DNA of 64,000 nucleotides from a virus: positions 1 to 64,000 of IMG/VR virus record IMGVR_UViG_3300043788_000131; one strand, written 5' to 3'. Position 1 is the stretch's first letter. Each line of letters starts with the position of its first letter. Shown here one piece after another: positions 3,451 through 17,594 of this stretch. The position numbers and the translations under genes are program-made. The notes below the pieces were generated by a model. The model worked only from the letters and a program-made list of their open reading frames with translations. It was not told the origin of the DNA and did no database searches.

Positions 3451-3717
3451 GTGTGGAAAAGCGCACAATTCGGTGGCTATCTGGACTGCCCTTCTTGTGA
3501 GGGCCGCGGTTTTGCGTTTGTTTATAACAATACACTGACCGACCGCCTGAAAGTAAAGTGCATTGCTTGCGATGGGGGGGGCAAGATCGGGGGGGACGCC
3601 TTCCCCGCCTCGGTGCTCGACGCTACGCGGTGGCTAATGAAGTATGCGCCAGAACGATTGCCAGCTTGGTTGGAGCGCCATGAGCCCGGATTGAAAGAGG
3701 CGGCTGAGCGCAAATGA
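3451..3717 (+). CDS. small zinc-finger protein
   Basis: CPSCEGRG...CIACDGGG (DnaJ-like CxxCxGxG pairs). Confidence 0.6.
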   Translation: MWKSAQFGGYLDCPSCEGRGFAFVYNNTLTDRLKVKCIACDGGGKIGGDAFPASVLDATRWLMKYAPERLPAWLERHEPGLKEAAERK

Positions 3718-4181
3718 TCCTCAAGTCACCCCCGAAAGGATGGAAGCGGCCGGTCATCCCGGTCGCCGTCAAGTTACAAGCCATGCTGCGGCGCTATCCG
3801 AATCCTCCAATCACCGTGATCTGTCAGGGGAGCGATAGCGCCAAGATGGTGGCAATGTTCCTCGTGTACGGGAAGCATCACTTCCATCACTCGCCCGGTC
3901 TTTGGCAGCGTGAATTCGATACCGACGCAAACGACACCGATCCGAAGGCAAACAGCGCAGAGCACATCCTCGCGGTGACCGGGTTGGAGCACGACGCAAT
4001 CGAGAACGGCCCCGGCGGCGAGCGGCGGATCACCTCTGCGGGCTCGGCTTCGAACCAGCGCGCCAAGAACAGGCGGCTCAATAAGCCAAAAAAAAGCCGC
4101 GGCCCCAAGTTGCGGAGCCGCGGCTTTGATAAGACCAGATCCCGCCGTTTCGACGGAACAGTAACCAGGAGGAAAAGGTGA
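3714..4181 (+). CDS. degenerate HNH-like protein with basic tail
   Basis: HFHHSPGL...N...EH pattern; basic C-terminus RSRGFDK..RRFDGTV. Confidence 0.5.
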   Translation: MILKSPPKGWKRPVIPVAVKLQAMLRRYPNPPITVICQGSDSAKMVAMFLVYGKHHFHHSPGLWQREFDTDANDTDPKANSAEHILAVTGLEHDAIENGPGGERRITSAGSASNQRAKNRRLNKPKKSRGPKLRSRGFDKTRSRRFDGTVTRRKR

Positions 4182-4441
4182 CGAGAGAGCAGGCTGAACG
4201 GGCTTTAAGCGTTGTCGCCCTCGTGCTCCACAGGGCTGACGTTCACCCGCAGACGGAGTTTCTGAGTGTGGGCGAGGCGAGGGTCACAGAAGAGGACCGC
4301 CGCAAAATCGCCAGGGGGATCGAGAGAAAATTCGGGAATGGTTTCACGTTTCCGCTGTTCGTCGAGGATAAGTGGATAACGGTTTCCGACGTGCTGATGT
4401 CGACCTGGGTGGTTCTTGAGCGTCAGGAAATGGCCGCATGA
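4178..4441 (+). CDS. hypothetical protein
   Basis: GGAGG RBS, GTGA overlap. Confidence 0.6.
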   Translation: MTREQAERALSVVALVLHRADVHPQTEFLSVGEARVTEEDRRKIARGIERKFGNGFTFPLFVEDKWITVSDVLMSTWVVLERQEMAA

Positions 4442-5785: not shown

Positions 5786-6352
5786 ATGCAGCAAGCAGCA
5801 GCGAAGAAGCAGGAAGAAATGTTCGAGGACGACTTGGACGACCAGACCTGGGCGAAGATCAGCACGCTCAAGGGCGACGTTCGAGACGCGATCCTCGACT
5901 GGTACAAGCGCAAGGAGAAAGCGTGGGGGGGCCAGAGCGGCTTTGACCAGAAAGCCACAATCTACGAGATCGAGGCCTTTGCCGACCGCATCATCAGAAA
6001 GGTTGCTCTCCTCGTGGCAACGCGCGGCTTTGACAGCGTGCCCATTACGGTTAGCAAATTCACGACTGATGTCGAGAAGGGCATTCAGGCAACCTTCATG
6101 ATGGCGCGCACGGACGAGAACCTGATCTCCATGAACGAGTGCTTGGGCGCATCCGTCCAGTTGGTCCCGCTGCCGCTCTCCGAGTTTATGGGCGAGCGCG
6201 CACCGGCGAAGCCGGATGTGATCCCCGGCGATCTGCGATTGCCCGATCCCGAAGCGGTGGTGGCGGACGCCAGGACGACGCCCGCGACCCCGCCCCACGA
6301 TCCCGAGACCGGGGAGATCAAGGAAGAGCAGCCGACTGCGACTGCGTCGTGA
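5786..6352 (+). CDS. hypothetical phage protein
   Basis: 188-aa ORF, HDPETGEI tail. Confidence 0.7.
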   Translation: MQQAAAKKQEEMFEDDLDDQTWAKISTLKGDVRDAILDWYKRKEKAWGGQSGFDQKATIYEIEAFADRIIRKVALLVATRGFDSVPITVSKFTTDVEKGIQATFMMARTDENLISMNECLGASVQLVPLPLSEFMGERAPAKPDVIPGDLRLPDPEAVVADARTTPATPPHDPETGEIKEEQPTATAS

Positions 6353-6354
6353 AT

Positions 6355-6430
6355 TGGCACCGGCGGCAGGTTTCGAACCCGCGCTGACGCGGTTTTGGAG
6401 GCCGCCACTCTACCACTGAGCTACGCCGGT
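6355..6430 (-). tRNA. tRNA-Trp(CCA)
   Basis: cloverleaf, loop CT-CCA-AA, GTTCGAAAC, encoded CCA. Confidence 0.92.
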
Positions 6431-6433
6431 AAA

Positions 6434-6507
6434 TGGTACTGCCTGATGGGGTCGAACCATCGTTTTCGCATCCACAGTGCGACGCTCTACCGTTGAGCTA
6501 AGGCAGC
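6434..6507 (-). tRNA. tRNA-His(GTG), A73, no G-1
   Basis: loop CT-GTG-GA; acceptor GCTGCCT/AGGCAGT-A-CCA. Confidence 0.92.
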
Positions 6508-6511
6508 AAAA

Positions 6512-7024
6512 ATGGAAACCGCACCTGTTGATCTCTTTACCGACGTCAATCCAGAGGAGGCGAAGAAATATCGCCGTTTTCGCGCGCGCCTTGAGGCGTC
6601 ACGGAAGGCTGTCAATGCCGTGGCCGAGTACCTCAAGGGCAGAGGACACGAAGTCGAAGTGCCTGAAATCAAGATCACGCCCAATGTATTCGAGGCCGCC
6701 AATTTCTTCGACGTTGGCGACATACTTATCCGCACCGAAGGCCGCTGGCGACGCATCGAGGTCAAGGGTGCCAATAAGCTGTTCAAGTGTCGGGAAGAGT
6801 GGCCTCACAAAAACATGTTTGTGGCTTCGGTGGCCTCTGTAGACCGAGCAAAGGACGTTTGGGCCTATTTTACGACCAGCAGCGATCTCGCCTACGCCGG
6901 GATCATCATGGATACCACCCGCCCTCATTGGTATCGAATGACCGCCCTGGCGCCGAACACGGGCCGCTTTGAGTACAACTACGCCTGTCCAATCGGGTTT
7001 GTCCGCTTCATCCGACTGAAATGA
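6512..7024 (+). CDS. PD-(D/E)XK-fold nuclease-like protein
   Basis: DVGDILI...RIEVKG motif. Confidence 0.65.
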   Translation: METAPVDLFTDVNPEEAKKYRRFRARLEASRKAVNAVAEYLKGRGHEVEVPEIKITPNVFEAANFFDVGDILIRTEGRWRRIEVKGANKLFKCREEWPHKNMFVASVASVDRAKDVWAYFTTSSDLAYAGIIMDTTRPHWYRMTALAPNTGRFEYNYACPIGFVRFIRLK

Positions 7025-7125
7025 GTAGCCGCATGTCGTTCGAAAACATGGTGTTTGTTCTGGTGGTGGGCTTTATCATTGCTGCATTCGCTGCGGCGTA
7101 TTCATCGCGAAAAAGGCCGAAATGA
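7021..7125 (+). CDS. 34-aa membrane peptide
   Basis: ATGA overlap; MVFVLVVGFIIAAFAAAY plus basic tail; hand translated. Confidence 0.5.
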   Translation: MSSRMSFENMVFVLVVGFIIAAFAAAYSSRKRPK

Positions 7126-7127
7126 AG

Positions 7128-7201
7128 CGGGCGTGGAGAGATTCGAACTCTCAACCTTCGGAACCAAAGTCCGACGCGCTGACCAGTTGCGCCACACGCC
7201 T
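7128..7201 (-). tRNA. tRNA-Gln(TTG), no encoded CCA
   Basis: loop CT-TTG-GT; GTTCGAATC; 1:72 mismatch. Confidence 0.88.
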
Positions 7202-7204
7202 TAA

Positions 7205-7281
7205 TGGTACTCCCGAGGGGAGTCGAACCCCTGATTTTCGGAGTGAAAATCCGATGTCCTTGGCCGCTAGACGACGGGAGC
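7205..7281 (-). tRNA. tRNA-Glu(TTC)
   Basis: loop TT-TTC-AC; CCA. Confidence 0.92.
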
Positions 7282-7290
7282 AGAAATCCA

Positions 7291-7620
7291 ATGCCGATTA
7301 GGATTCAAAGGCGAAGATCTCGGGGCTGGAAGATGCCGGAAGGTGCGGTCTATGTCGGGCGGCCGACCAGATGGGGCAATCCGTACTTTCCAGGATCGGG
7401 CATGTCGCGCGGCTTTTTCGACAAGGATATGGTTCCGACCGAATACGACGTGCGGGACCCTCGCGTGCAGGTCCAATGGTATCGAGAGCACATGGCGGAC
7501 CTTCTGCCAGTGGCGGGGGAAGAATTGCTCTGGCCGCTGCGCGGCAAGAACCTCTGTTGCTGGTGCCGGCTAGACCAGCCGTGCCACGCCGACGTGCTAC
7601 TGGAGCTTGCGAACAAATGA
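7291..7620 (+). CDS. DUF4326 domain protein
   Basis: AVYVGRPTRWGNPY...LRGKNLCCWC..PCHADVLLELAN. Confidence 0.85.
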   Translation: MPIRIQRRRSRGWKMPEGAVYVGRPTRWGNPYFPGSGMSRGFFDKDMVPTEYDVRDPRVQVQWYREHMADLLPVAGEELLWPLRGKNLCCWCRLDQPCHADVLLELANK

Positions 7621-7814
7621 CGCTCCGCCTCAAACCCGACGCCGCTCGGCGCCTCGTGTGGAGCCATCCTGATTCGAGCATCGCGCCGTTCTGCTCGCTA
7701 TGTCAGGCGCATATTCCCGAGAACACCATTCCGTTGAGGATGTGGAGGAATAATGGAGCGTGCGTCCAGTTCTGCGACGGTTGCGTGGAAAGCTGGTTTG
7801 AGGTGAAGGAGTAA
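7617..7814 (+). CDS. small CxxC...CxxC zinc-binding protein
   Basis: ATGA overlap; CSLC, CDGC. Confidence 0.55.
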   Translation: MTLRLKPDAARRLVWSHPDSSIAPFCSLCQAHIPENTIPLRMWRNNGACVQFCDGCVESWFEVKE

Positions 7815-7816
7815 AA

Positions 7817-7890
7817 TGGAGCGGACCGAGGGAATCGAACCCTCGTCTTCTGGTTGGAAGCCAGAAGCTCTACCATTGAGCTAGGCCCGC
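7817..7890 (-). tRNA. tRNA-Gly(TCC)
   Basis: loop CT-TCC-AA; GCG acceptor, U73, CCA. Confidence 0.93.
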
Positions 7891-7907
7891 AGGAAAGGGT
7901 GACAGCT

Positions 7908-8099
7908 ATGACGACGAAACGTGAAGCAGAGATCATCGAGCAGATCGTGGGCTCAATGACGGAGCGAGAGTATTGGGGCCTCGTAGGCTGGTTGTCGAAT
8001 GGATGTGAAGAAGGCGCGCTGTGGGAGTGTGTGCGACGTCGGAAGATGGCGGAGCCTGTCCGATTCGAACGGACGGCACCCGAAGGTGCGGCGGTTTAG
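7908..8099 (+). CDS. hypothetical protein running into antisense of tRNA-Ser
   Basis: ORF track, ATG 7908. Confidence 0.45.
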   Translation: MTTKREAEIIEQIVGSMTEREYWGLVGWLSNGCEEGALWECVRRRKMAEPVRFERTAPEGAAV

Positions 8100-8134
8100 C
8101 GGACCGCTGGGTTAATCCACTCCCCCAAGGCTCC
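8047..8134 (-). tRNA. tRNA-Ser(GCT), C33
   Basis: loop CC-GCT-AA; long variable arm GCACC-TTCG-GGTGC; G73 CCA. Confidence 0.9.
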
Positions 8135-8137
8135 AAG

Positions 8138-8350
8138 ATGAAAGATCACGGGAAACTACTTTATGAACATGGTATCGCCGTTCTGCATCGACCCTGTGAT
8201 GGAGGGTGGGTGATCGTGCGAGCGGATGGCTCGACCATGCTGAGCGGCGAGCCCGCATGGACCTTTGAACAAGCCTGGGCGGCGGTAGAAGACCTCACTG
8301 ACAAAAAATGGAACCAGGAAATTGTGCGCGAAGCGCGGCCCCTCGATTGA
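8138..8350 (+). CDS. hypothetical protein
   Basis: fills inter-tRNA spacer exactly. Confidence 0.55.
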   Translation: MKDHGKLLYEHGIAVLHRPCDGGWVIVRADGSTMLSGEPAWTFEQAWAAVEDLTDKKWNQEIVREARPLD

Positions 8351-8352
8351 TT

Positions 8353-8428
8353 TGGAGATCCCGGCCGGATTCAAACCGGCGACCTGCCCGCTAGGATCGG
8401 GCCGCTCTATTCGCTGAGCTACGGGACC
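8353..8428 (-). tRNA. tRNA-Arg(CCT)
   Basis: loop AT-CCT-AG; T loop TTTGAAT; CCA. Confidence 0.87.
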
Positions 8429-8446
8429 ATCAAGGAAACCAAGCCA

Positions 8447-8719
8447 ATGGTAGCTGATATTGTGAAGCGGGCGCGAAGTTACGAGGTTGGCAACCTCGCG
8501 CTACAAGCAACGTGGGTAAAAGAAATGCACGAACTCGCCGACGAGGTCGAGCGGCTTCGAGGTCTTGCTGTAGATCTTGTGAAACAGAATGGAGCATTGG
8601 CGCGCGAGGTCGAGCGGCTGCAGGCTGCGCTCGAAGATACAACCTACCCTCTTGGCGAAATTAACGATCTGCGTGCTGAGATCGAGCGGCTCAAGGGGAC
8701 CGTGGAGGAACCCAAATGA
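8447..8719 (+). CDS. coiled-coil hypothetical protein
   Basis: AAGGA RBS; repeated EVERL heptads. Confidence 0.65.
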   Translation: MVADIVKRARSYEVGNLALQATWVKEMHELADEVERLRGLAVDLVKQNGALAREVERLQAALEDTTYPLGEINDLRAEIERLKGTVEEPK

Positions 8720-8868
8720 TGGAGAAGACTGGACTATGGTTCTGGGAAGACTACGAAGAGGTTGAGTTTGTTCTCGTGCTTGAGCCCCAGAGCCTCATAA
8801 ACATCCGATCGCGTATCGCGAAAGATAAGGCGAACGAGCGGTTTCAGAAAAGGTTCGAGCAGTCGTGA
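8716..8868 (+). CDS. 50-aa hypothetical protein
   Basis: GGAGG RBS, ATGA overlap; hand translated MMEKTGLWFWEDY... Confidence 0.5.
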   Translation: MMEKTGLWFWEDYEEVEFVLVLEPQSLINIRSRIAKDKANERFQKRFEQS

Positions 8869-8870
8869 AG

Positions 8871-8946
8871 TGGAGCCCCCGGCGCGATTCGAACGCGCGA
8901 CATCCGATTTAGAAGATCAGCGCTCTTTCCACTGAGCTACGGAGGC
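8871..8946 (-). tRNA. tRNA-Arg(TCT)
   Basis: loop CT-TCT-AA; CCA. Confidence 0.92.
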
Positions 8947-8950
8947 GAAG

Positions 8951-9166
8951 ATGCAAACGAGATCGTATAAATCCGCTCTCGCGATCATTTCCCGGCCTGA
9001 ATTGTTCGATGCTAAGCGGGTATTAGACGCCGCTGCTTTAATTTTCGCTGCCGATCGCTTTCCGAATGATCGGCTGAAAGCCTATGACCTTGCTCAACGC
9101 GTCCTTTCCGGTGAACAAAAGACAGCCAGGGCCGTCGCTAGGATAAGAACGCTCGGGACAGTGTAG
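8951..9166 (+). CDS. hypothetical protein
   Basis: fills spacer; GGAGG RBS is the antisense of the tRNA 5' end. Confidence 0.55.
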   Translation: MQTRSYKSALAIISRPELFDAKRVLDAAALIFAADRFPNDRLKAYDLAQRVLSGEQKTARAVARIRTLGTV

Positions 9167-9169
9167 TCG

Positions 9170-9243
9170 TGGAGGCGAGGGCCGGAATTGAACCGGCGTG
9201 GGGGCTTTTGCAGAGCCCTGCCTAGCCACTCGACCACCTCGCC
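9170..9243 (-). tRNA. tRNA-Cys(GCA)
   Basis: loop CT-GCA-AA; U73; CCA. Confidence 0.93.
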
Positions 9244-9263
9244 AGGAGGAGAAGATCGTGGGA

Positions 9264-9494
9264 ATGTTGATACACAGCAATCGGCACGGGCTTGATCAAT
9301 CGCAACGTGATCGTGTCCTGTTGCGCTTGCAATGCGATGGCGAACACGGATTGTTTGGGCCGCCTGTTCAGGAATTCGAGCATCCAGATGGTTTTATCGG
9401 AGAACACCGCGCAGCGATGGAAGCCGGATGGCTTGAGCGTGACGGTGGCTCAAGAGGCAGACTGTGGCTTTGCCCCGACTGCTCGGGGAAGTGA
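9264..9494 (+). CDS. small zinc-ribbon-like protein
   Basis: CDGEH...AAMEAGW...LCPDC. Confidence 0.6.
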   Translation: MLIHSNRHGLDQSQRDRVLLRLQCDGEHGLFGPPVQEFEHPDGFIGEHRAAMEAGWLERDGGSRGRLWLCPDCSGK

Positions 9495-9570
9495 TGGCTG
9501 GGGCTCTCGGGCTTGAACCGAGGACCTGCGGAGTCAGAGTCCGCCACTCTACCAACTGAGCTAAGCCCCA
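9495..9570 (-). tRNA. tRNA-Gln(CTG)
   Basis: loop CT-CTG-AC; U1-A72, G73; CCA. Confidence 0.92.
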
Positions 9571-9594
9571 CAAAAATATAACTGGAAATATAAC

Positions 9595-9671
9595 TGGTCA
9601 GGATGGCGGGCCTCGATCCCGCGACCTTCGGCTCCCCGAGCCGACGCTCTACCAAGCTGAGCTACATCCTG
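9595..9671 (-). tRNA. tRNA-Pro(GGG), C33
   Basis: loop TC-GGG-GA; C1-G72, A73; T loop ATCGAGG. Confidence 0.87.
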
Positions 9672-9749
9672 GTCAGGGCGGTGGGATTTGAACCCACGAA
9701 TCTCCGGGTTCCAGGCCCGGCGGGGACGGCCAAACTCCCCCACGCCCTG
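9670..9749 (-). tRNA. tRNA-Pro(TGG), C33, A37
   Basis: loop CC-TGG-AA; C1-G72; CCA overlaps next tRNA by 2 nt. Confidence 0.87.
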
Positions 9750-9756
9750 TTAGGGT

Positions 9757-9832
9757 TGGAGCTCCCGGAGCGATTCGAACGCCCGACCACCGGATTCGTA
9801 ATCCGGGACTCTATCCGCTGAGTTACGGGAGC
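9757..9832 (-). tRNA. tRNA-Arg(ACG)
   Basis: loop TT-ACG-AA; CCA. Confidence 0.92.
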
Positions 9833-9840
9833 AAGCCGTC

Positions 9841-9993
9841 GTGACCAAAAAGCAGAAATGGTCGTATCTCTGGCGCCATCTTTATGGTCGCCTCATGATT
9901 TCAGAGGCCGCCGCCAAGCATGCCGCGGCCCTCGCGATTGAGTGGCTGGAAAAGCACGAGAAGCCCAAGGTTGGCACCCCCGATGAGATTTGA
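9841..9993 (+). CDS. 50-aa hypothetical protein
   Basis: GTG start, GGGAG RBS from tRNA antisense; hand translated MTKKQKWSYLWRHLY... Confidence 0.4.
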   Translation: MTKKQKWSYLWRHLYGRLMISEAAAKHAAALAIEWLEKHEKPKVGTPDEI

Positions 9994-10046
9994 ACTCATG
10001 TCGCCGACGTGAGAGGCCGGTATCCTGACCGCTAGACGACGGGGGC
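9972..10046 (-). tRNA. tRNA-Glu(CTC)
   Basis: loop CT-CTC-AC; CCA. Confidence 0.92.
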
Positions 10047-10199
10047 TTACTCGAATCTTCGCGCCTTCCTTGCTAGTTCGAGGGCGCGCAACAGAGAAAT
10101 GAGAAGCCGCCATTGCCTTTCAACCCGCCGCACGCGGCGCCGTCTTTTCGGCTTTTTCAGCGGCTGCGAGGCGGGTTCTTTTGGCCGGTCGAGGATCAT
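10047..10199 (-). CDS. 50-aa highly basic peptide
   Basis: fills spacer; MILDRPKEPASQPLKKPKRRRRVRR...; no SD. Confidence 0.35.
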   Translation of the reverse strand: MILDRPKEPASQPLKKPKRRRRVRRVERQWRLLISLLRALELARKARRFE

Positions 10200-10209
10200 C
10201 GCGGGGGCT

Positions 10210-10285
10210 TGGCTCCCAGGGCAGGGGTCGAACCTGCAACCGCTCGGTTAACGGCCGAGTGCTCTGCCGGTTGAGCTACCTGGGA
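10210..10285 (-). tRNA. tRNA-Asn(GTT), C33
   Basis: loop CC-GTT-AA; U1-A72, G73; CCA. Confidence 0.92.
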
Positions 10286-10286
10286 A

Positions 10287-10363
10287 TGGTGGACCCTGTC
10301 AGGCTCGAACTGACGACCCCCTGCTTGCAAAACAGGCGCTCTCCCAAACTGAGCTAAGGGCCC
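10287..10363 (-). tRNA. tRNA-Ala(TGC)
   Basis: loop TT-TGC-AA; G3:U70; CCA. Confidence 0.94.
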
Positions 10364-10393
10364 ATTATTACATTATGTGTCAAAGTGTGAAAA

Positions 10394-10468
10394 TGGTGCC
10401 CACGGATGGGATTGAACCACCGACGCCCGCGCCTTCAACGCGGCGCTCTACCGCTGAGCTACATGGGC
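10394..10468 (-). tRNA. tRNA-Phe(GAA)
   Basis: loop TT-GAA-GG; CCA. Confidence 0.92.
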
Positions 10469-10895
10469 AACGCGAGCCGCCCTTGACGCGGAGGCCCGCC
10501 AAGAATTTCGAAGTCCGCGGCATGCCGCAGGCCTCGCTGCTGGTTGTTTCGCGGCTCATCCACTCGGAACCGCGGAATTGGCGTGCGGCAAGTCTCCGCT
10601 GGAAAGAGGTACGATCTATCCAGGGCAGGCGAGTAGACGCCGAAGAGGTCGACGTGCCCGTGATATGACGTTGTGCGCTTGCCACCGGCGGTTACCAGTA
10701 GGTTCGGAAGTCAATGGCGCCGTTTTTGTAGACGGCAGTTTTGCACTGCACTCTCTGGAAAGAGCCGTCTTTCTCGATCACTAGATCGTACTTCAGTCCA
10801 TCGCTGAAGGGCCGAAGAACCACATACTGAGCGCGCAACAGAGCCGCGGTAATCATCGCGACGGAGAGATCGCCTATCGCAGTCGTGTTCTTCAT
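10459..10895 (-). pseudogene. group I intron-type PD-(D/E)XK homing endonuclease, frameshifted near 10697
   Basis: N-half GDLSVA...PFSDGLKYDLVIE...RVQCKT; C-half in shifted frame VDLFGVYSPALDRSYLFP...PRNNQQRGLRHAADFEI; length 3n+2. Confidence 0.8.
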
Positions 10896-10901
10896 TGGAT
10901 T

Positions 10902-10976
10902 TGGAGCGGGTAGAGAGATTCGAACTCTCGACTTCAATCTTGGCAAGATTGCACTCTACCTCTGAGTTATACCCGC
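10902..10976 (-). tRNA. tRNA-Gly(GCC)
   Basis: loop TT-GCC-AA; CCA. Confidence 0.94.
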
Positions 10977-10980
10977 AATT

Positions 10981-11066
10981 TGGTGGGCAGTGTTGGACTC
11001 GAACCAACGAAGGCCGAAGCCACCAGATTTACAGTCTGGCTCCTTTGCCACTCGGATCAACTGCCC
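10981..11066 (-). tRNA. tRNA-Tyr(GTA)
   Basis: loop CT-GTA-AA; variable arm GGC-TTCG-GCC; CCA. Confidence 0.93.
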
Positions 11067-11080
11067 TTAAAGCACAAAGT

Positions 11081-11165
11081 TGGCGGAGGGTGAAGGAATC
11101 GAACCATCACCGTTTCCGGGGCGCGGTTTTCGGGACCGTGTGCTCACCCATGAGCGCCACCCTCC
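11081..11165 (-). tRNA. tRNA-Ser(CGA), C33
   Basis: loop CC-CGA-AA; variable arm CCG-GAAA-CGG; G73 CCA. Confidence 0.88.
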
Positions 11166-11191
11166 GTAGATCAGTATATGTTTCAGATAGT

Positions 11192-11269
11192 TGGCTGTCC
11201 CGGCCGGATTCGAACCGGCGACCCCTGCCTTCGGAGGGCAGTGCGCTATCCAGGCTACGCCACGGGACA
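11192..11269 (-). tRNA. tRNA-Arg(CCG), A37
   Basis: loop CT-CCG-AA; CCA. Confidence 0.92.
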
Positions 11270-11312
11270 AGAATCGTGCTATCTTGCCACCCCATTCCAA
11301 TGGGGGTGCGCT

Positions 11313-11510
11313 ATGGACAGCGCAAAGGTGACTGCAGCGGTTCGCTCCGTCGAGAATGCCCGGAAGCTACTCGATGCAGCGATCGCCAAATGGGACGAGA
11401 CCGTCACTGAAACGCAGTTAGCGTGGCTTGCTGTACGGAGGGCACAGAGACACCTCCGCGACGCGGTAACCATTGCGCAACACGAAGCCGGCATCCAATC
11501 AGGCGAGTGA
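11313..11510 (+). CDS. small helical protein
   Basis: ATG 11313, convergent with 11512. Confidence 0.5.
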   Translation: MDSAKVTAAVRSVENARKLLDAAIAKWDETVTETQLAWLAVRRAQRHLRDAVTIAQHEAGIQSGE

Positions 11511-11511
11511 A

Positions 11512-11775
11512 CTAGCGCCCCTCGTCCTTGTCGGCGTAGAGCATGACCCGGATAGCCGGCGTCATGTCCGCGAAGCGCGCGACAACCTTTGCCAGGGCGT
11601 CAACCTCGTAAAGCTCACGCTGCTTGCAGCCCTTCCAGAGCACGAACTTTGCGTCCTTGCCGGCCTCTTCCTTGTGGATATTGATGACCTGCACGAAGAA
11701 GGTCATCAACGGATGGTCCCAGCCCACGATGACCTTGTGATCGGGGTTGCGGGCTGGGATTTCGTGGCGGCTCAT
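11512..11775 (-). CDS. hypothetical protein
   Basis: ATGA-coupled to HNH; VIVGWDHPLMTFFVQV. Confidence 0.7.
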   Translation of the reverse strand: MSRHEIPARNPDHKVIVGWDHPLMTFFVQVINIHKEEAGKDAKFVLWKGCKQRELYEVDALAKVVARFADMTPAIRVMLYADKDEGR

Positions 11776-12317
11776 GAAAGCGTGCTATCCCAATACAGGT
11801 AATCCCGCCAGCTTTCATGCAGATAGCCCGGTGGAAAAGCCCTCTTCGCGGCCAAGAGCTCGCCCGGTGTCGGCTGCCTGGGCGCCCGGATCGGCCGCAT
11901 GGCGGTCCGATCGTCCTTGAGGACGTTGCACGGCGAGCAGGCCGCGACGACGTTCTCCCAGGTCGATTGTCCGCCCCTGCAGCGGGGCACCACATGATCG
12001 AACGTCAGATCCTCGCTCCGATGCGCTTGGCCGCAATACTGGCACCGGAAGCGATCGCGCAGGAAGACGTTGAAGCGGGTGAACGCGACGTTCTTCGGGA
12101 CCGGGTGAAACTTCCGCAGCGCCAGGACCGAGGGGAGCCGCATGGTCGTCGAGGGGCTCCGGACGACGGTGTCGTACTCCTCGACGACATAGTGCGTCGC
12201 CTCGACCACCGCCTTGACCGCCCGCTCGTAGGGGATGGTCGACAGCGGGAAGTAGCTGAGAGGTTGGTAGTCAGCGTTGAGCACCAACGCCGGATGCGCT
12301 TGCATGGGAGGCTCCAT
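11772..12317 (-). CDS. HNH endonuclease (McrA-like, host-type)
   Basis: ALVLNADYQPLSYFPLS...RDRFRCQYCG...TFDHVVPRCRGGQSTWENVVAACSPCN. Confidence 0.92.
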   Translation of the reverse strand: MEPPMQAHPALVLNADYQPLSYFPLSTIPYERAVKAVVEATHYVVEEYDTVVRSPSTTMRLPSVLALRKFHPVPKNVAFTRFNVFLRDRFRCQYCGQAHRSEDLTFDHVVPRCRGGQSTWENVVAACSPCNVLKDDRTAMRPIRAPRQPTPGELLAAKRAFPPGYLHESWRDYLYWDSTLS

Positions 12318-12337
12318 TGTTGGTACGGGTTGAGGCG

Positions 12338-12526
12338 ATGACCGACGCTGAGCTACGGGCCTTCTTGAACCTGACCGAGGCAGAGGCCTTGGTGATCATC
12401 CCGCGGCTGACGCCGGAGAAGCGCGCGGCCTACGAGCGGATGGCCGACGTCATTGTCGAGGAAAAGCTACGGCGGGTCGGGCTCTGGACGGAGGAGCCGA
12501 ACGCTCTCCTGTTTCGGAACCTGTGA
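12338..12526 (+). CDS. hypothetical protein
   Basis: GAGG RBS, ATG 12338. Confidence 0.55.
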   Translation: MTDAELRAFLNLTEAEALVIIPRLTPEKRAAYERMADVIVEEKLRRVGLWTEEPNALLFRNL

Positions 12527-12608
12527 AGCAAATTCTGATTTGCGGCTTTGACGGCGAGCCATGCGAGCCGAACTGTGCTCTGTTTCAGCCATGTCCGCGT
12601 GTAAGGCT

Positions 12609-12687
12609 TGGTGGCCGCGGCAGGCTGGGTGAGCCCGCTAATCAGACGCTTATGAGGCGTCGGTCTCCGCTCTTCGACTTCACGGCC
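12609..12687 (-). tRNA. atypical tRNA(CAT), probably Met elongator
   Basis: acceptor GGCCGTG/CGCGGCC-A-CCA; perfect stem GACGC-CT-CAT-AA-GCGTC; no U8 and no TTC loop. Confidence 0.65.
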
Positions 12688-12693
12688 CTTGAT

Positions 12694-12772
12694 TGGTCAG
12701 GGCACCGAGATTTGAACTCGGGGTCTCCACCTTCCGAGGGTGGCGGGAACGGCCAGACTTCCCCATGCCCTG
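12694..12772 (-). tRNA. tRNA-Pro(CGG), A37
   Basis: loop CT-CGG-AA; C1-G72; body similar to Pro(TGG). Confidence 0.9.
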
Positions 12773-12829
12773 TTGACATTTTGCGCTGAAATTCGGATTT
12801 GGTTGCGCAGCGCTCTCCGCAACAGGAAT

Positions 12830-12905
12830 TGGCGACCCTACGGGGAATCAAACCCCGGACAACCTCGCTAGACAGGCGAGTGCTCTTTCACTGAGCTATA
12901 GGGCC
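12830..12905 (-). tRNA. tRNA-Asp(GTC), U37
   Basis: loop CT-GTC-TA; G73; CCA. Confidence 0.87.
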
Positions 12906-12907
12906 GT

Positions 12908-12991
12908 TGGTGCGGTCGGGGAGACTTGAACTCCCACGGAGTAATCCACAGCGCCCTCAACGCTGCGCGTCTACCATTTCGCCACGACCGC
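12908..12991 (-). tRNA. tRNA-Leu(GAG)
   Basis: loop TT-GAG-GG; variable arm GGA-TTAC-TCC; CCA. Confidence 0.93.
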
Positions 12992-12994
12992 ATT

Positions 12995-13069
12995 TGGTGA
13001 ACGCTCTGGGGCTCGAACCCAGGACCTACGGTTTAAGAGACCGCCGCTCTACCGCTGAGCTAAGCGTCC
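12995..13069 (-). tRNA. tRNA-Lys(CTT)
   Basis: loop CT-CTT-AA; CCA. Confidence 0.93.
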
Positions 13070-13070
13070 G

Positions 13071-13152
13071 CGAACCGGGGTGGGCTTGAACCACATGCCT
13101 ACGGGTTAAAAGTCCGCTGCCCGGCCGACCCAGGCTTGAAGGCTCCCGGTCC
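13071..13152 (-). tRNA. atypical tRNA-Lys(TTT), expanded D region, no CCA
   Basis: acceptor GGACCGG/CCGGTTC; loop CT-TTT-AA; GGTTCAAGCC. Confidence 0.65.
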
Positions 13153-13242
13153 ATTTGGTATGTCTAGTGGGCTACGAGACGGACGCATCGTTGCATCGGC
13201 GGCCCCGTGATCCATGGGATTTGGACGCGGGGCCTTTCTATT

Positions 13243-13317
13243 TGGTCCACACTGCTGGAGTCGAACCAGCCACCACCCGGTTATCGGCCGGGGCCCTCGC
13301 CGCTCGGACTAGTGTGG
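13243..13317 (-). tRNA. tRNA-Ile(GAT), C33
   Basis: loop CC-GAT-AA; CCA. Confidence 0.88.
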
Positions 13318-13318
13318 A

Positions 13319-13395
13319 TGGTGTGTCCTACTGGATTTGAACCAGTGACCTCGTCCATGTCAAAGACGCGCTCTGACCCGCTGAGCTAAGGACAC
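13319..13395 (-). tRNA. tRNA-Val(GAC)
   Basis: loop TT-GAC-AT; CCA. Confidence 0.92.
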
Positions 13396-13396
13396 G

Positions 13397-13471
13397 TACT
13401 CCCGGCAGGATTTGAACCTGCGAAATGTCGGCGTGTAAAACCGATGCCTTGGGCCGCTTGGCGACGGGAGC
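13397..13471 (-). tRNA. tRNA-Val(TAC), Glu-like body, no full CCA
   Basis: loop TT-TAC-AC; GGTTCAAATCC. Confidence 0.88.
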
Positions 13472-13489
13472 GTAGGGTACAATCTCCGT

Positions 13490-14031
13490 ATGGAGAAGAT
13501 GGATTCGCGCCGAGGCGAAGAGACGCGGTTTAACGGTGTATTTTACCGGCAAGCCATGCAAACACGGCCATCGCAGCGTTCGCTATTGTCCTCAATGGCA
13601 TTTGCAAAGAATGTACCGTCCTCCGCCACCGGGAATGGTGCAAGAATAACCCCGATGGTCAACGGCAAGCAAATCTGAAGCATGCAGCCGCCAACCCAGG
13701 GGCAAACGCCAAGCGTGTTGCCAAATGGCGTGCTGAAAATCCGGTCTCTGCTCGTGTCGCCGCTCGCGCCTATGACCACAAGCGGCGCGACCGCCCAGGT
13801 AGCGGCTTCACGGCTGGGGATGTCGAGAAGCTATTAGAAGCCCAGCGCGGGAGGTGTGCCTATTGCCGAAAACCGCTCCGCGGAAAGTACCACGTCGATC
13901 ACATAAAAGCACTGGCGCGTGGTGGTCGCAACTCCCGTGCGAACATTCAACTTACATGCCCGTCGTGCAACAAGAAGAAATACACGAAAGACCCTCTCGA
14001 CTTTGCGAGAGAGTGCGGGCTTCTGATTTAG
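13490..14031 (+). pseudogene. phage HNH homing endonuclease with two +1 frameshifts
   Basis: YFTGKPCKHGH in one frame; QRGRCAYCRK..YHVDHIKALARGGRNSRANIQLTCPSCN in another; paralogue of 35215-35853. Confidence 0.82.
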
Positions 14032-14162
14032 GCCAAAATCAACAATTCGTGAACGCGATGCTTAGGAACGCGCGCGCCGAGCGCCGCTAAGTCATTGATG
14101 TTTGGTCGAGCAAACAAAAAAGCCGAAAACGCGATTTGATATATTAAGGTCGGAGGTGGCTC

Positions 14163-14363
14163 ATGACCGACGATCTGACAATCCCCGACTTCCTGAGAAG
14201 AGACCCGCCAGCACAGGCGCCCTCGACGCGAATGCCGAAGCGGCGCGAGAAGAAGATACCATATCCCGTGGACGGCTATCTCGGCAAAGGCCTGCGCGCC
14301 AAGGCGCGGGAGCGGTTGCGGGAGCGTCGCCGCCGCGATGCGGAGAAGATGCGCCAACGCTGA
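14163..14363 (+). CDS. small basic protein
   Basis: GGAGGT RBS; DDLTIPDFLRR motif. Confidence 0.65.
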   Translation: MTDDLTIPDFLRRDPPAQAPSTRMPKRREKKIPYPVDGYLGKGLRAKARERLRERRRRDAEKMRQR

Positions 14364-14364
14364 T

Positions 14365-14441
14365 TGGTGCCCACGGCTGGATTCGAACCAGCGAATTTCC
14401 TGCTTTTGAGGCAGTGGCCTTTGCCGCTTGGCTACGCGGGC
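14365..14441 (-). tRNA. tRNA-Leu(CAA) lacking long variable arm
   Basis: loop CT-CAA-AA; variable loop only ~6 nt; A73 CCA. Confidence 0.87.
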
Positions 14442-14455
14442 GGAACTTCATAAAA

Positions 14456-14531
14456 TGGTGCGGACGGAGGGACTTGAACCCCCAGCTTACACGGTCTGAA
14501 CGTGCTGCGTTTGCCATTTCGCCACGCCCGC
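14456..14531 (-). tRNA. tRNA-Leu(CAG) lacking long variable arm
   Basis: loop TT-CAG-AC; Leu-type D arm; 5-nt variable loop; CCA. Confidence 0.87.
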
Positions 14532-14544
14532 GAAGGAGAGCCAA

Positions 14545-14781
14545 ATGTCTATAGGCAGTACCCGGCTTCCGATTCTGCCGTCCGACAGCCCGCAAATACG
14601 GGCAATTAAACAGAAGGCGGCGGAGTTGATTGATCTCTGCTATGAGAACAAGCCTAGCAGAGAGGCAAATCCAGAAGTCGAGCGTTTGTGGAAATTCGCT
14701 GAATTTCTGTTTGAAGATGGAGCCATGTGGGCGGAAAAGGCCGCTGCTCGCGGAAAAATTGGAGCCACCGGCGCGATTTGA
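14545..14781 (+). CDS. small helical protein (similar in pattern to Acb2/Tad1-like phage proteins)
   Basis: AAGGAG RBS; IRAIKQKAAELIDLC...ERLWKFAEFLFEDGAMWAEKAAA; resemblance by eye only. Confidence 0.55.
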   Translation: MSIGSTRLPILPSDSPQIRAIKQKAAELIDLCYENKPSREANPEVERLWKFAEFLFEDGAMWAEKAAARGKIGATGAI

Positions 14782-14835
14782 ACGCGCGACCTACGCCTTA
14801 CCAAGACGTTGCTCTGCCGACTGAGCTACGGCGGC
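14760..14835 (-). tRNA. tRNA-Thr(GGT)
   Basis: loop TT-GGT-AA; CCA. Confidence 0.93.
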
Positions 14836-15141
14836 CTTCGTGCGATTGCGGTAGCGGGCTAAGCATAACTGCGCCAGCATGCGACGTTGGTCACCCTGCA
14901 CGACAGGGAAAACAAGGTCGGCGTCATAGGAGTACCGCGGCTTGGCCTTTTCAGGCGCGTATTTCACGCAAAACCGCATGATGATTTGGTTGATCGGAGG
15001 CGATTTGGCAAAGCCGAATGATCTGGCGATCTCCTTTTGGGAATAGCCCTGGACCCAGAGGTTTACGATCGAGGCTTGGACTTCCTCGCGTGCCAGCAGT
15101 TCCGCTCTTGGTATCTTGAAGGTCGAAATATGAGGAAGCAT
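14791..15141 (-). CDS. HTH-containing hypothetical protein
   Basis: LWVQGYSQKEIARSFG; ATG shares the A of the upstream tRNA CCA. Confidence 0.5.
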   Translation of the reverse strand: MLPHISTFKIPRAELLAREEVQASIVNLWVQGYSQKEIARSFGFAKSPPINQIIMRFCVKYAPEKAKPRYSYDADLVFPVVQGDQRRMLAQLCLARYRNRTKAAVAQSAEQRLGKA

Positions 15142-15216
15142 GGGGCCCTCCCAGGGACTTGAACCCGTGCTCACCAACTTACAAAGATGGTGCATCGCCG
15201 TCTATGCTTGAAGGGC
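15141..15216 (-). tRNA. tRNA-Thr(TGT)
   Basis: loop TT-TGT-AA; A8; CCA. Confidence 0.85.
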
Positions 15217-15218
15217 GT

Positions 15219-15295
15219 TGGTGCTGGCGGGAGGATTTGAACCCCCGACATCCACAGTACGAATGTGGCGGTCTACCGGGCTGACCTACACCAGC
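15219..15295 (-). tRNA. tRNA-Thr(CGT)
   Basis: loop TT-CGT-AC; CCA. Confidence 0.92.
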
Positions 15296-15723
15296 AACGA
15301 CACTTTTTGCCCTCACGAATGAGGGGGCAAAAGATGTCGTCTGACCCTCCTTGCCGGAAACCAGAGACCCGCGCGGACGCGAATGCCTACCGGCCAAGGG
15401 GCGCCCTTATACGAAGGGGGCGCCATCCTGGCGGACAAATTGTCAAATCTGGGAGGTGTTTTGGAGCCATCGGCTCTCCGCTTTGGTGCGGAGGCTTTTG
15501 CTCTCCGCGGGTTTAGGTTTCGAAGGATTTTCCGGAATAACCGGGCTTTGTCGTTTGGAGGGTTAGGCCGCCCCAGGCTTCGCTGCACACGCACAAAAAC
15601 CGCTGCGACCCTCGCGGGTGCGCGGTTCTGGCGGCGGCGATATTTGAGCGTATGAGGCGCATCGGATTGATGTGGCAGCCTTCGCGGACGAAATCAAGGC
15701 GACCGATATGGTTATGGTAAACG

Positions 15724-15755
15724 AAAAAAGCCGCCGACCCTGTGAGGCCGGCGGC
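15724..15755 (-). terminator. intrinsic terminator ending lysis/late transcript
   Basis: GCCGCCGGCC-TCACA-GGGTCGGCGGC followed by T6 on minus strand. Confidence 0.8.
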
Positions 15756-15936: not shown

Positions 15937-16284
15937 TCAACGCTTTTCGAGAACGCGGTCGATACGGTCGCTCATCCCCTTGACCTCGCGGCCGACATCC
16001 TCGATCGCGCGCGTCATGCGGCCCTCGGCGGCAAGCTGTGCCTGCACGGCGCCGCTCGCCGCTGCCTCAACTCGGGCGAACTGCGATGCGTACCTCTCTC
16101 CACGATCGGCTACTTCGCGCGTAAGCAGTTCGACCTTTGCGATGGCTGCGGTTGCCAACGCTAGTGCGTTTTGGCTCTGTGAAGCGATACTGCCTTCCCG
16201 CGTCGCCCAGCCATAGAAGTGTCGTCCGAAGACACCAATGGCCGTCGAGGTCACGGCGACCGCGGCCACCATCTGCCAATCCAT
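15937..16284 (-). CDS. single-TM coiled-coil protein (holin/lysis accessory candidate)
   Basis: GGAGG RBS; N-terminal hydrophobic helix; follows endolysin. Confidence 0.65.
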   Translation of the reverse strand: MDWQMVAAVAVTSTAIGVFGRHFYGWATREGSIASQSQNALALATAAIAKVELLTREVADRGERYASQFARVEAAASGAVQAQLAAEGRMTRAIEDVGREVKGMSDRIDRVLEKR

Positions 16285-16299
16285 GACACGCCTCCAAAC

Positions 16300-16324
16300 A
16301 AAAACCCGGCACGAACGCCGGGCT
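16300..16324 (-). terminator. intrinsic terminator
   Basis: GCCCGGC-GTTCGT-GCCGGG-TTTTT. Confidence 0.65.
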
Positions 16325-16351
16325 TCAACTTGTGCGGCCCCCGCCGGGGTT

Positions 16352-17125
16352 TTATGCCGTGAAGAAGGAGCGCAGCTTGGCAAGGAAGCCGACCGGCGCG
16401 GATGCCGGCTGCGGCTGCGGCTGCGGCTTTGCCGGCGCCGGGACGATCGGGACACCGATGGTCATGGTAGGTGTGCTTGTCGTCATCGTCATCACCGGCG
16501 GTGGTATCGCCGCGATCTCCTTTGCCTTCGTCAACCAGTGCGCATAGGCCCCTGCGAGTTTGGTGTCGTAGTGGTTGGCCGCATACCCCGCGCCATTGTA
16601 GCCCCGCGCGAACGCCGCCCAATTATGGCCGTTGAGGTATCTGGCGAGGTTGTTGTGCTCGATCTCGCGGATCAGGCACTCGACCTGGGCCGGGACGCCG
16701 CCGTGGATCATGTAGTCGACCATGTGACGGGCATCGACGAACCCGAGTTCCTTGTAATTGAAGCCCATGGTCTGCCCGACGCCCCAGGAGGCCGAGCGGC
16801 AGGCCGCCTCGTCGTTGATGGCGCGGGCTTGCGCGAGGATGGCAAGACGTCCTGCTGAAGTCCCCTCGTTGCGGTACTCGGTCTTGGGCTGCCATGACGT
16901 GTAGGCGAGCCCGGCGGCGACCGCGTGGTCGACCGCGGCGCGGTCAAGTTCGAGAAGTTGCCGATAGAAGACATGCTTCTCGAACAAAAAACTCGGCGTG
17001 CGGCCGTCGATTTCGAGGCTATGGCCGTCCGATTCGATCTCGACGACGGCGAGCAGCGCCGCGAGGTCGAACTTATAGGTCTTGGCGACCGATGCGATTT
17101 CACGAAGAACTGCTGGTTCGAACAT
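16352..17125 (-). CDS. endolysin, N-acetylmuramidase (DUF3380-type)
   Basis: AVVEIESDG, LFEKHVFY, SASWGVGQTMGFNY, WAAFARGYNGAGY..YDTKL. Confidence 0.92.
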   Translation of the reverse strand: MFEPAVLREIASVAKTYKFDLAALLAVVEIESDGHSLEIDGRTPSFLFEKHVFYRQLLELDRAAVDHAVAAGLAYTSWQPKTEYRNEGTSAGRLAILAQARAINDEAACRSASWGVGQTMGFNYKELGFVDARHMVDYMIHGGVPAQVECLIREIEHNNLARYLNGHNWAAFARGYNGAGYAANHYDTKLAGAYAHWLTKAKEIAAIPPPVMTMTTSTPTMTIGVPIVPAPAKPQPQPQPASAPVGFLAKLRSFFTA

Positions 17126-17594
17126 TACACTCCTCCATTTGGGACATAGCAAAGGACAGCGCGCGGCGCCAAACGATGGCTGGGGTTGCCATCGTGACTT
17201 GGTCCGCCCAGGAAGATGATGACGTGGCCGGTAGGATTGCCCTTCAGGTATTGTTCTTGGCCGACGATCTTTTTCGGTGGCACCTCGTACTCGGTGCCGA
17301 TGTCCTCATGGAATTCGCGACCGAGGACCTTGTCGTCACGATCGTCAGTGATGACGGCGTAGGTTTTGCCGTCGCGAACACGCACTTCGTCGGCGTAGTA
17401 GGCGTCGCCTTCGCCGCAGCATGAAGTGCCCGGTGTTGCGTAACCCCCGCGGCCGACCGTGTCCGGCTGCACTAGACCACGAACCATTGCTTCGTGAGGT
17501 CGTCGTGCCCGACGAGGTCCCACTGGCCTTTGTCCTTGGCCTGGGCGGGGGCCAACAAGGCGCAAAGCAATAGCGTGGCGAAAAGCTTTCGCAT
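17125..17594 (-). pseudogene. secreted Cys-containing protein, 1-nt frameshift near 17481
   Basis: signal peptide MRKLFATLLLCALLAPAQA in one frame; GLVQPD..SCCGEGDAY...GNPTGHVIIFL..LCYVP in the next; length 3n+2. Confidence 0.7.

Follow-up and report, generated by a model that had tools for sequence, protein, structure and literature searches.

A phage tRNA array interleaved with protein genes, most of them on the opposite strand

We analyzed the first 64 kb (positions 1 to 64,000; hereafter the window) of the 101,797-bp IMG/VR virus record IMGVR_UViG_3300043788_000131, an uncultured phage with a GC content of ~60% and an estimated completeness of 96%. The minus strand of the window carries a large array of tRNA genes at positions 6355-15295, and most of the array's spacers are filled with small protein genes on the plus strand. 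This anatomy, with genes on both strands and strong terminators on either side, is directly observed. The reading we favor, with somewhat better than even confidence, is that this phage tRNA island consists of two overlapping, opposed polycistronic units, one running leftward through the tRNAs and the other running rightward through the spacer genes.

An initial annotation, made from the sequence alone, had counted 35 tRNA genes; ARAGORN gave 33 and one degenerate tRNA-Lys(ttt). The latter lacks a CCA, its D arm is truncated, and it lies immediately upstream of tRNA-Lys(ctt); it is probably a pseudo-tRNA. Because it is degenerate and falls below the threshold, the array count is 33 or 34. All 33 tRNAs were placed on the minus strand, as that annotation had stated. 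Rfam (RF00005 or tRNA-Sec) supported 32 of the 33, and 31 exceeded the RF00005 gathering score of 29 (range, 36-73 bits). The tRNA missed by Rfam, tRNA-Ser(gct) at 8047-8134, was detected by ARAGORN only, but it folds into a clean cloverleaf of class II. Of the 33 tRNA genes, 31 include the 3' CCA. Every amino acid but Met is served by the array, and the sole tRNA-Met gene lies elsewhere (genome positions 91298-91373, minus strand). The many clustered genes with valid cloverleaves are those of a phage tRNA cluster. By the gene map, the span of 8,941 nt is made up of 28% tRNA, 42% plus-strand coding sequence (CDS), 15% minus-strand CDS, and 16% unassigned DNA. In the ARAGORN folds, both tRNA-Ser genes (8047-8134 and 11081-11165, minus strand) have C, not U, at position 33. 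Two AT-rich mini-spacers, at 9571-9594 and 10364-10393, separate adjacent tRNAs in this 60% GC DNA. One of them contains GTTATATTT twice, and the other has the promoter-like arrangement TTCACA-N16-TGtAATAAT (10 of 12 positions), with the -10 element abutting tRNA-Ala. These mini-spacers could serve as internal promoters or mark sites of processing.

The plus-strand open reading frames (ORFs) are packed closely against the tRNAs. Stop positions were evaluated in the 16 spacers of at least 100 nt, using plus ORFs of at least 30 codons and 1,000 dinucleotide shuffles as a control. A plus-strand stop codon was found 0-3 nt from a tRNA 3' end in 8 of the 16 spacers, compared with 0.74 ± 0.85 (maximum, 5) in the shuffles. 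Likewise, 12 of 15 spacers have a plus-strand start at a distance of 3-18 nt from the 5' end of a tRNA (shuffles, 4.6 ± 1.8). The mirror control on the minus strand gave two flush stops and three flush starts. The eight stop/tRNA pairs at 0-3 nt listed in the initial annotation were all recovered to within 1 nt; it had also noted several starts within ~3-10 nt of a tRNA 5' end. Five plus starts lie only 3-9 nt from a tRNA, so their Shine-Dalgarno (SD)-like purine runs fall in anti-tRNA sequence and are the complement of the first bases of the tRNA (for example, GGAGGC-gaag-ATG at 8951). Plus genes sharing a spacer are coupled by ATGA overlaps (at 7021, 7617, and 8716), and three plus ORFs extend 22-53 nt into a tRNA.

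These boundaries bear on one alternative, namely that most of the plus-strand spacer ORFs are chance frames in 60% GC DNA and that the region is an ordinary one-strand tRNA cluster. Many alternative ORFs are present on both strands, and several candidates score near zero in a codon model trained on 22 long genes. However, the flush stops and starts are far above the shuffles, SD sequences and ATGA overlaps are present, and, for 14 of the 19 candidates, the plus frame is the best-ranked of the six frames over its own span. The codon signal was strong for 5786-6352, 6512-7024, 8716-8868, 9841-9993, 12338-12526, and 14163-14363, and weaker for 7291-7620, 8447-8719, and 11313-11510. Furthermore, homologues are known for four plus ORFs (7291-7620, 6512-7024, 8951-9166, and 9258-9494). 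The last two score below zero in the codon model despite their homologues, which indicates that the model under-calls genes. Chance frames are therefore largely refuted as a general explanation, and we regard this alternative as highly improbable. About 17 plus ORFs were accepted as candidates, so the similar number in the initial annotation was a fair count by the gene map, and 10 or 11 of them have support beyond position. It is uncertain whether 7021-7125, 7908-8099, 13490-13678, and 13682-13837 are genes, and 13854-14090 is unlikely to be one.

We also considered whether the plus ORFs merely mirror minus-strand genes and rejected this on the basis of the ORF at 9258-9494. Its antisense frame outscores the plus frame in the codon model. 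However, its protein has a 92% identical copy, in which four of six substitutions are conservative, and homologues of 44-46% identity in three viral contigs without tRNAs.

Four protein genes within the array share the strand of the tRNAs (10692-10895, 11512-11775, 11772-12317, and 14791-15141). The earlier description of the spacers as largely opposite-strand genes thus holds for the 13-17 plus genes and had overlooked these four. The HNH endonuclease gene at 11772-12317 (minus) and the gene at 12317-12526 (plus) start back to back with zero intergenic DNA, so each would be read from a long transcript. The gene for a helix-turn-helix (HTH) protein at 14791-15141 shares sequence with both flanking tRNAs: its ATG uses the last A of the CCA of tRNA-Thr(tgt), its SD sequence (GGGAGGG) is the 3' acceptor strand of that tRNA, and its last 15 codons and stop codon fall within tRNA-Thr(ggt). 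Processing of these tRNAs would therefore remove its ribosome-binding site (RBS) and stop codon. The plus genes lie so near the tRNAs that they have no room for separate promoters, and each would therefore ride a long transcript of its orientation. Since such promoter-less genes lie between tRNAs of the opposite strand, both strands would be transcribed across ~9 kb. The initial annotation had proposed the same, and the anatomy, with genes on both strands and no room for promoters, supports it.

We next considered where such transcripts might begin and end. A genome-wide scan for a simple GC-rich hairpin followed by a U run placed the three strongest minus-strand terminators of the 102-kb genome at 90917-90879, 15755-15724, and 4127-4088, and the latter two bracket the array. 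No strong terminator was found within the array in these scans. The terminator at 15755-15724 is followed by a second, weaker one. This tandem pair (15755-15595) sets the array apart from the lysis operon, so the tRNAs do not simply belong to the late transcript. The initial annotation had described the tRNAs as facing the late direction, which is correct as to the minus strand, but "late" was an assumption, as the tandem terminators part the array from the lysis genes. As a consequence of this insulation, the array needs its own promoter within 15595-15341. A perfect-looking hairpin (15296-15341) abuts the 5' end of the first tRNA and may be a processing or leader element.

In the reading we favor, the leftward unit would start in this ~250-nt stretch (15595-15341) between the tandem terminators and the first tRNA and would comprise the 33 tRNAs together with the HNH endonuclease, its small partner, a PD-(D/E)XK remnant, and the HTH protein. 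It may extend to the terminator at 4127-4088, which may end it, and over this last part it would be purely antisense to four further plus genes. No minus-strand gene is present between this terminator and the last tRNA. The terminator lies in frame within the plus ORF 3714-4181, just left of the GTG start of ORF 4178-4441; a match to the Rfam family BcKCsr2 at 4089-4209 was non-significant (E value, 0.27). The rightward unit would be the distal part of a recombination/accessory arm (ERF, DUF5131, and DUF4326) with 13-17 small genes in the tRNA spacers, and its mRNA would contain 33 anti-tRNA segments. No strong plus-strand terminator was found in 1-17 kb. A plus-strand hairpin at 15487-15509 was examined as a candidate and was unconvincing (z-score, -0.6).

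Several observations weigh against two such units. We infer the co-transcription of each unit from its anatomy, that is, at the level of sequence. A sigma-70 scan performed at shuffle level, and no promoter was found for either unit. A 10-mer search of the intergenic DNA returned GC-rich words only and no phage motif. In addition, the leftward spacer RNAs would be 200-900 nt long, untranslated, and, in the left half of the array, C-rich and G-poor. Untranslated RNA of this composition invites Rho, and a long precursor could be cut to short units. The terminator at 4127-4088 could also belong to a separate small antisense RNA resembling OOP. Finally, for five or six of the plus ORFs, the evidence consists of frame rank and position.

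Part of the same evidence is relevant to an arrangement that produces little antisense RNA, in which several internal promoters drive the tRNAs and Rho or weak hairpins end the transcripts in the spacers, or the two strands are active at different times, so that orientation has no regulatory effect. The C-rich, G-poor composition of the leftward RNA and the two AT-rich, promoter-like mini-spacers inside the array are consistent with it, as is the resemblance of the spacer genes to independently acquired accessory genes. However, no recurring motif was seen by eye in the 50 nt upstream of each tRNA cluster, and initiation from the site at 10364-10393 would fall inside tRNA-Ala. Moreover, the minus-strand protein genes in the long spacers require leftward read-through, and the terminator at 4127-4088 implies real leftward transcription past the array. 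On balance, we consider this neutral arrangement unlikely.

The relatives of the spacer genes suggest how they came to lie between the tRNAs. The 6512-7024 protein belongs to a family that occurs mostly without nearby tRNAs. Of 39 metagenome loci, 3 contain tRNAs (L089, L090, and L099, the first two possibly from one and the same phage), and these tRNAs share the strand of the gene. The L099 homologue lies within a nine-tRNA array, co-oriented with it, and ends 1 nt before the next tRNA. We also noted that this family of ~160-aa proteins without a Pfam match is located directly against the tRNA genes in all three of these loci; from such contexts, it may be a tRNA-associated mobile nuclease. 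No two of the spacer genes were found together elsewhere when their synteny was examined in other contigs. Several spacer genes have a low GC content at third codon positions (GC3, 0.51-0.57), which suggests recent acquisition. Because homologues occur in unrelated contexts, one of them co-oriented and equally flush, the spacer genes resemble accessory genes without promoters that were acquired independently, lodged between tRNAs, and were compacted to the tRNA boundaries. The flush packing of the co-oriented homologue in L099 means that such packing is not a signature of antisense design; genes lodged between tRNAs show it generally, whichever way they face. The bias of 13-17 plus genes vs 4 minus genes is best explained if promoter-less genes survive only facing a transcript that reads them.

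These results also bear on the regulatory proposal of the initial annotation. In that proposal, a late tRNA precursor is processed by RNase P and 3' nucleases, which free stable spacer antisense RNAs that silence the early genes (for example, via RNase III), with early mRNA acting against the tRNAs in return; the arrangement would then amount to an evolved excludon. The geometry of the spacers fits, in that they exceed the genes by 0-3 nt at the stop and 3-18 nt at the start, and the leftward precursor would contain near gene-length antisense copies, much as the initial annotation had envisaged. The array without strong internal terminators, and a leftward unit that seemingly runs on for 2.2 kb as pure antisense to a strong terminator, are likewise in its favor. 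By contrast, the array is cut off from the lysis operon by the tandem terminators, genes on the tRNA strand occupy four spacers or parts of spacers, and the co-oriented homologue is packed just as flush. Excised tRNA spacers are, as a rule, short-lived. The homologues of spacer genes in other settings fit opportunistic lodging better than a designed switch, and we therefore hold such a switch to be rather improbable.

If the two opposed units were both active, polymerases would collide and sense and antisense RNAs would pair along whole genes. As in a noncontiguous operon, strong tRNA transcription would then tend to silence the distal genes of the rightward unit. In a bolder version, the tRNA array and the distal accessory arm form a noncontiguous operon that is reciprocal and many-fold. 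Once the tRNA promoter fires, tRNA processing would yield gene-length antisense RNAs, together with a 2.2-kb antisense tail ending at 4127-4088; these would silence ~20 rightward genes simultaneously and couple tRNA supply to the end of the early/accessory program. We put this version forward tentatively and think it doubtful.

Table 1. Features of the tRNA array and its surroundings in the window (positions are those of the window; ΔG, folding free energy; frame rank is among the six frames over the ORF's own span)
Feature	Position	Strand	Evidence and remarks
Intrinsic terminator	4088-4127	-	15-bp stem and U8; ΔG -32; z-score -5.9; 2.2 kb past last tRNA
188-aa plus-arm gene	5786-6352	+	Codon score 94; GC3 0.81; stop 2 nt from tRNA-Trp 3' end
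tRNA array	6355-15295	-	33 tRNA genes in 17 clusters (ARAGORN)
170-aa protein with PD-(D/E)xK-nuclease-like fold	6512-7024	+	Homologues of 39-43% identity; start 4 nt from tRNA-His 5' end
34-aa ORF	7021-7125	+	Unsupported: coordinates only, frame second of six; ATGA overlap with 6512-7024; stop 1 nt from tRNA-Gln
DUF4326 protein	7291-7620	+	Pfam 1.2e-18; PHROG 5e-28; tblastn matches in 251 phage records; start 9 nt from tRNA-Glu 5' end, SD-like GGGAGC within anti-tRNA
65-aa ORF	7617-7814	+	Frame first of six; ATGA overlap with 7291-7620; stop 2 nt from tRNA-Gly
63-aa ORF, uncertain	7908-8099	+	SD AGGAAAGGG; frame first of six; last 53 nt antisense to tRNA-Ser(gct)
70-aa ORF	8138-8350	+	Frame first of six; fills spacer, gaps 3 nt and 2 nt
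90-aa coiled-coil protein	8447-8719	+	Codon score 18; coiled-coil Pfam matches
50-aa ORF	8716-8868	+	Codon score 20, frame first of six; ATGA overlap with 8447-8719; stop 2 nt from tRNA-Arg
71-aa gene	8951-9166	+	Homologue P0009, 54% identity, E 1.9e-10; fills spacer, gaps 4 nt and 3 nt; SD (GGAGG) is complement of tRNA-Arg 5' end
78-aa gene	9258-9494	+	SD AGGAGG; homologue P0004, 92% identity; stop abuts tRNA-Gln (0 nt)
50-aa ORF	9841-9993	+	Codon score 21.5, frame first of six; start 8 nt from tRNA-Arg 5' end; last 22 nt in tRNA-Glu
PDDEXK_5 (I-Ssp6803I-type) endonuclease, N-terminal half	10692-10895	-	Pfam PF11645 4.2e-19, profile positions 2-67 of 138; PHROG 1.7e-14
65-aa ORF, weak support	11313-11510	+	Codon score 13.8, frame first of six
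87-aa gene	11512-11775	-	Codon score 53; GC3 0.85; 4-nt overlap with HNH gene
HNH endonuclease	11772-12317	-	Pfam HNH 6.9e-13 and HNH_5 2.3e-13, both above cut-off; PHROG 1.8e-34
62-69-aa gene	12317-12526	+	Codon score 26-29; GC3 0.87
Degenerate tRNA-Lys(ttt)	13071-13136	-	Relaxed-threshold ARAGORN only; Rfam 18.4 bits, below gathering score 29
62-aa ORF, weak support	13490-13678	+	Frame first of six; start 18 nt from tRNA-Val 5' end
51-aa ORF, weak, uncertain	13682-13837	+	Frame second of six
66-aa gene	14163-14363	+	SD GGAGG; codon score 14.5, frame first of six; stop 1 nt from tRNA-Leu
78-aa gene	14545-14781	+	SD GAAGGAG; last 22 nt overlap tRNA-Thr
116-aa HTH protein	14791-15141	-	21 homologues, best 62% identity, E 5e-29, residues 2-101; N-terminus conserved
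Hairpin, ~17 bp, perfect-looking	15296-15341	-	ΔG -23 kcal/mol; z-score -3.6; abuts 5' end of first tRNA
Second, weaker terminator	15595-15637	-	Follows 15724-15755
Intrinsic terminator after lysis genes	15724-15755	-	11-bp stem and U6; ΔG -23; z-score -4.3
115-aa membrane protein	15937-16284	-	In minus-arm end 15937-17152
Muramidase	16352-17152	-	Pfam Muramidase 3.4e-45; in minus-arm end 15937-17152

The coordinates of these features are collected in Table 1. Among the products of the plus-strand genes, the 6512-7024 protein gave no Pfam or PDB sequence match. Its AlphaFold model (pLDDT, 88) was most similar to PD-(D/E)xK nucleases: all of the top fold matches are of this type and weak (E values of 5e-3 to 0.1 and TM-scores of 0.3-0.43). 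Within the family of 21 sequences, D67 is invariant and E83 and K85 are nearly invariant, forming a D...ExK motif. The 14545-14781 product matched the Acb2/Tad1 domain (Pfam PF24729) with an E value of 2.2e-4 and 21.8 bits, below the cut-off of 27; as a lead drawn from this similarity, it may be an anti-CBASS or anti-Thoeris sponge. A PADLOC search for defense genes in the spacers found none but one weak coiled-coil match.

On the minus strand, the PDDEXK_5 gene starts 6 nt after tRNA-Gly and is cut by an in-frame stop codon at 10692-10694. Its reading frame remains open past the stop, from 10685 to 10380, into tRNA-Phe, and the gene (10380-10895) is, from its sequence, probably a decaying homing endonuclease. 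With the HNH gene, this fragment places homing-type endonucleases among the spacer ORFs, as is characteristic of tRNA islands. In the homologues of the HTH protein, the conserved part stops exactly at the 5' end of the next tRNA.

The setting of the array within the genome was also examined. Plus-strand genes, including ERF, DUF5131, and small ORFs, occupy positions 1 to ~15 kb and again the region from ~99.4 kb, and the minus strand carries nearly everything from 99.4 kb down to 15.9 kb. The minus arm contains a GcrA-like gene, an SU10-type portal, and a 5,368-aa protein, and finally the muramidase and the membrane protein. The portal, muramidase, and ERF genes mark the record as a phage, and its overall appearance is that of a lytic-type phage contig, not of a prophage. 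The GcrA-like gene suggests an alphaproteobacterial host. Beyond the window, the lone tRNA-Met gene is followed by a co-oriented 110-aa gene, and the hairpin at 90917-90879 (minus) that comes after both is the strongest terminator-like structure in the genome (ΔG, -25).

No close relative was found in the phage or IMG/VR collections. Megablast and blastn searches of the window against phages gave tRNA matches only. IMG/VR scans with the 170-aa spacer protein (6512-7024), the portal, and the HTH family gave no useful relative, and a genome-contig scan with the HTH family gave one match, which was irrelevant. The loci located via the DUF5131 and muramidase genes were without tRNA arrays. The one known close relative is an 11.6-kb ENA contig, which encodes the 92% identical copy of the 9258-9494 protein.

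Compared with known systems, the clustered phage tRNAs with protein ORFs and homing-type endonucleases in their spacers resemble the tRNA regions of T4 and T5. For the T4 tRNA cluster, PMC2988022 (citing PMC2330249) places the free-standing homing endonuclease SegB between tRNA-Arg and tRNA-Ile. In T4 and T5, however, the lodged genes are on the tRNA strand, whereas here most spacer genes (13-17, compared with 4 on the tRNA strand) face the other way and form part of a different transcription arm. At the DNA level, the tRNAs of the window were best matched by those of bacteriophage DSS3_MAL1 (MN602268.1; ~29 tRNAs), which also has a large array interrupted by small hypothetical genes. Unlike the present array, the DSS3_MAL1 tRNAs and spacer CDSs are all annotated on one strand. 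Such co-orientation is the usual, though not a defining, layout of tRNA islands, and most spacer genes here depart from it.

The layout is closer to that of noncontiguous operons or excludons, in which opposite-strand genes lie within a transcription unit, the transcripts overlap along the genes, and repression is mutual (PMC11034616, PMC7154746, and PMC12288877). According to PMC11034616, noncontiguous operons are not predictable computationally. As in these systems, opposite-strand genes lie wholly within a co-oriented unit, according to the gene map and the bracketing terminators. The described noncontiguous operons, which were demonstrated by transcriptomics, are bacterial mRNA operons with no more than a few opposite genes; in the present array, one partner is a tRNA precursor, the arrangement is repeated ~13 times, and it is known from sequence. 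More distant parallels come from mitochondria, where "mirror" tRNAs and tRNA punctuation mark the gene boundaries on the two strands of a compact genome, and from lambda OOP and P22 sar, phage antisense RNAs that act in temporal control. These belong to another domain of life or another scale, and the window shows no homology to them. A non-exhaustive literature search found no account of a phage tRNA array that lies antisense within an operon. We describe the array as a phage tRNA island with a layout like that of a noncontiguous operon.

Phage tRNA clusters are usually read with their neighbors, whereas here ~9 kb, and possibly 11.6 kb, would be read both ways. The tRNA and protein genes share boundaries to the nucleotide; some RBSs are encoded opposite a tRNA, and a few codons run into one. 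Should the overlap prove regulatory, the array would provide the first tRNA precursor doubling as a multi-gene antisense silencer and an extreme noncontiguous operon. If it is not, the array would indicate that the gaps between tRNAs accept promoter-less accessory genes in either orientation and that an mRNA operon and highly expressed tRNA genes can share the same DNA head-on.

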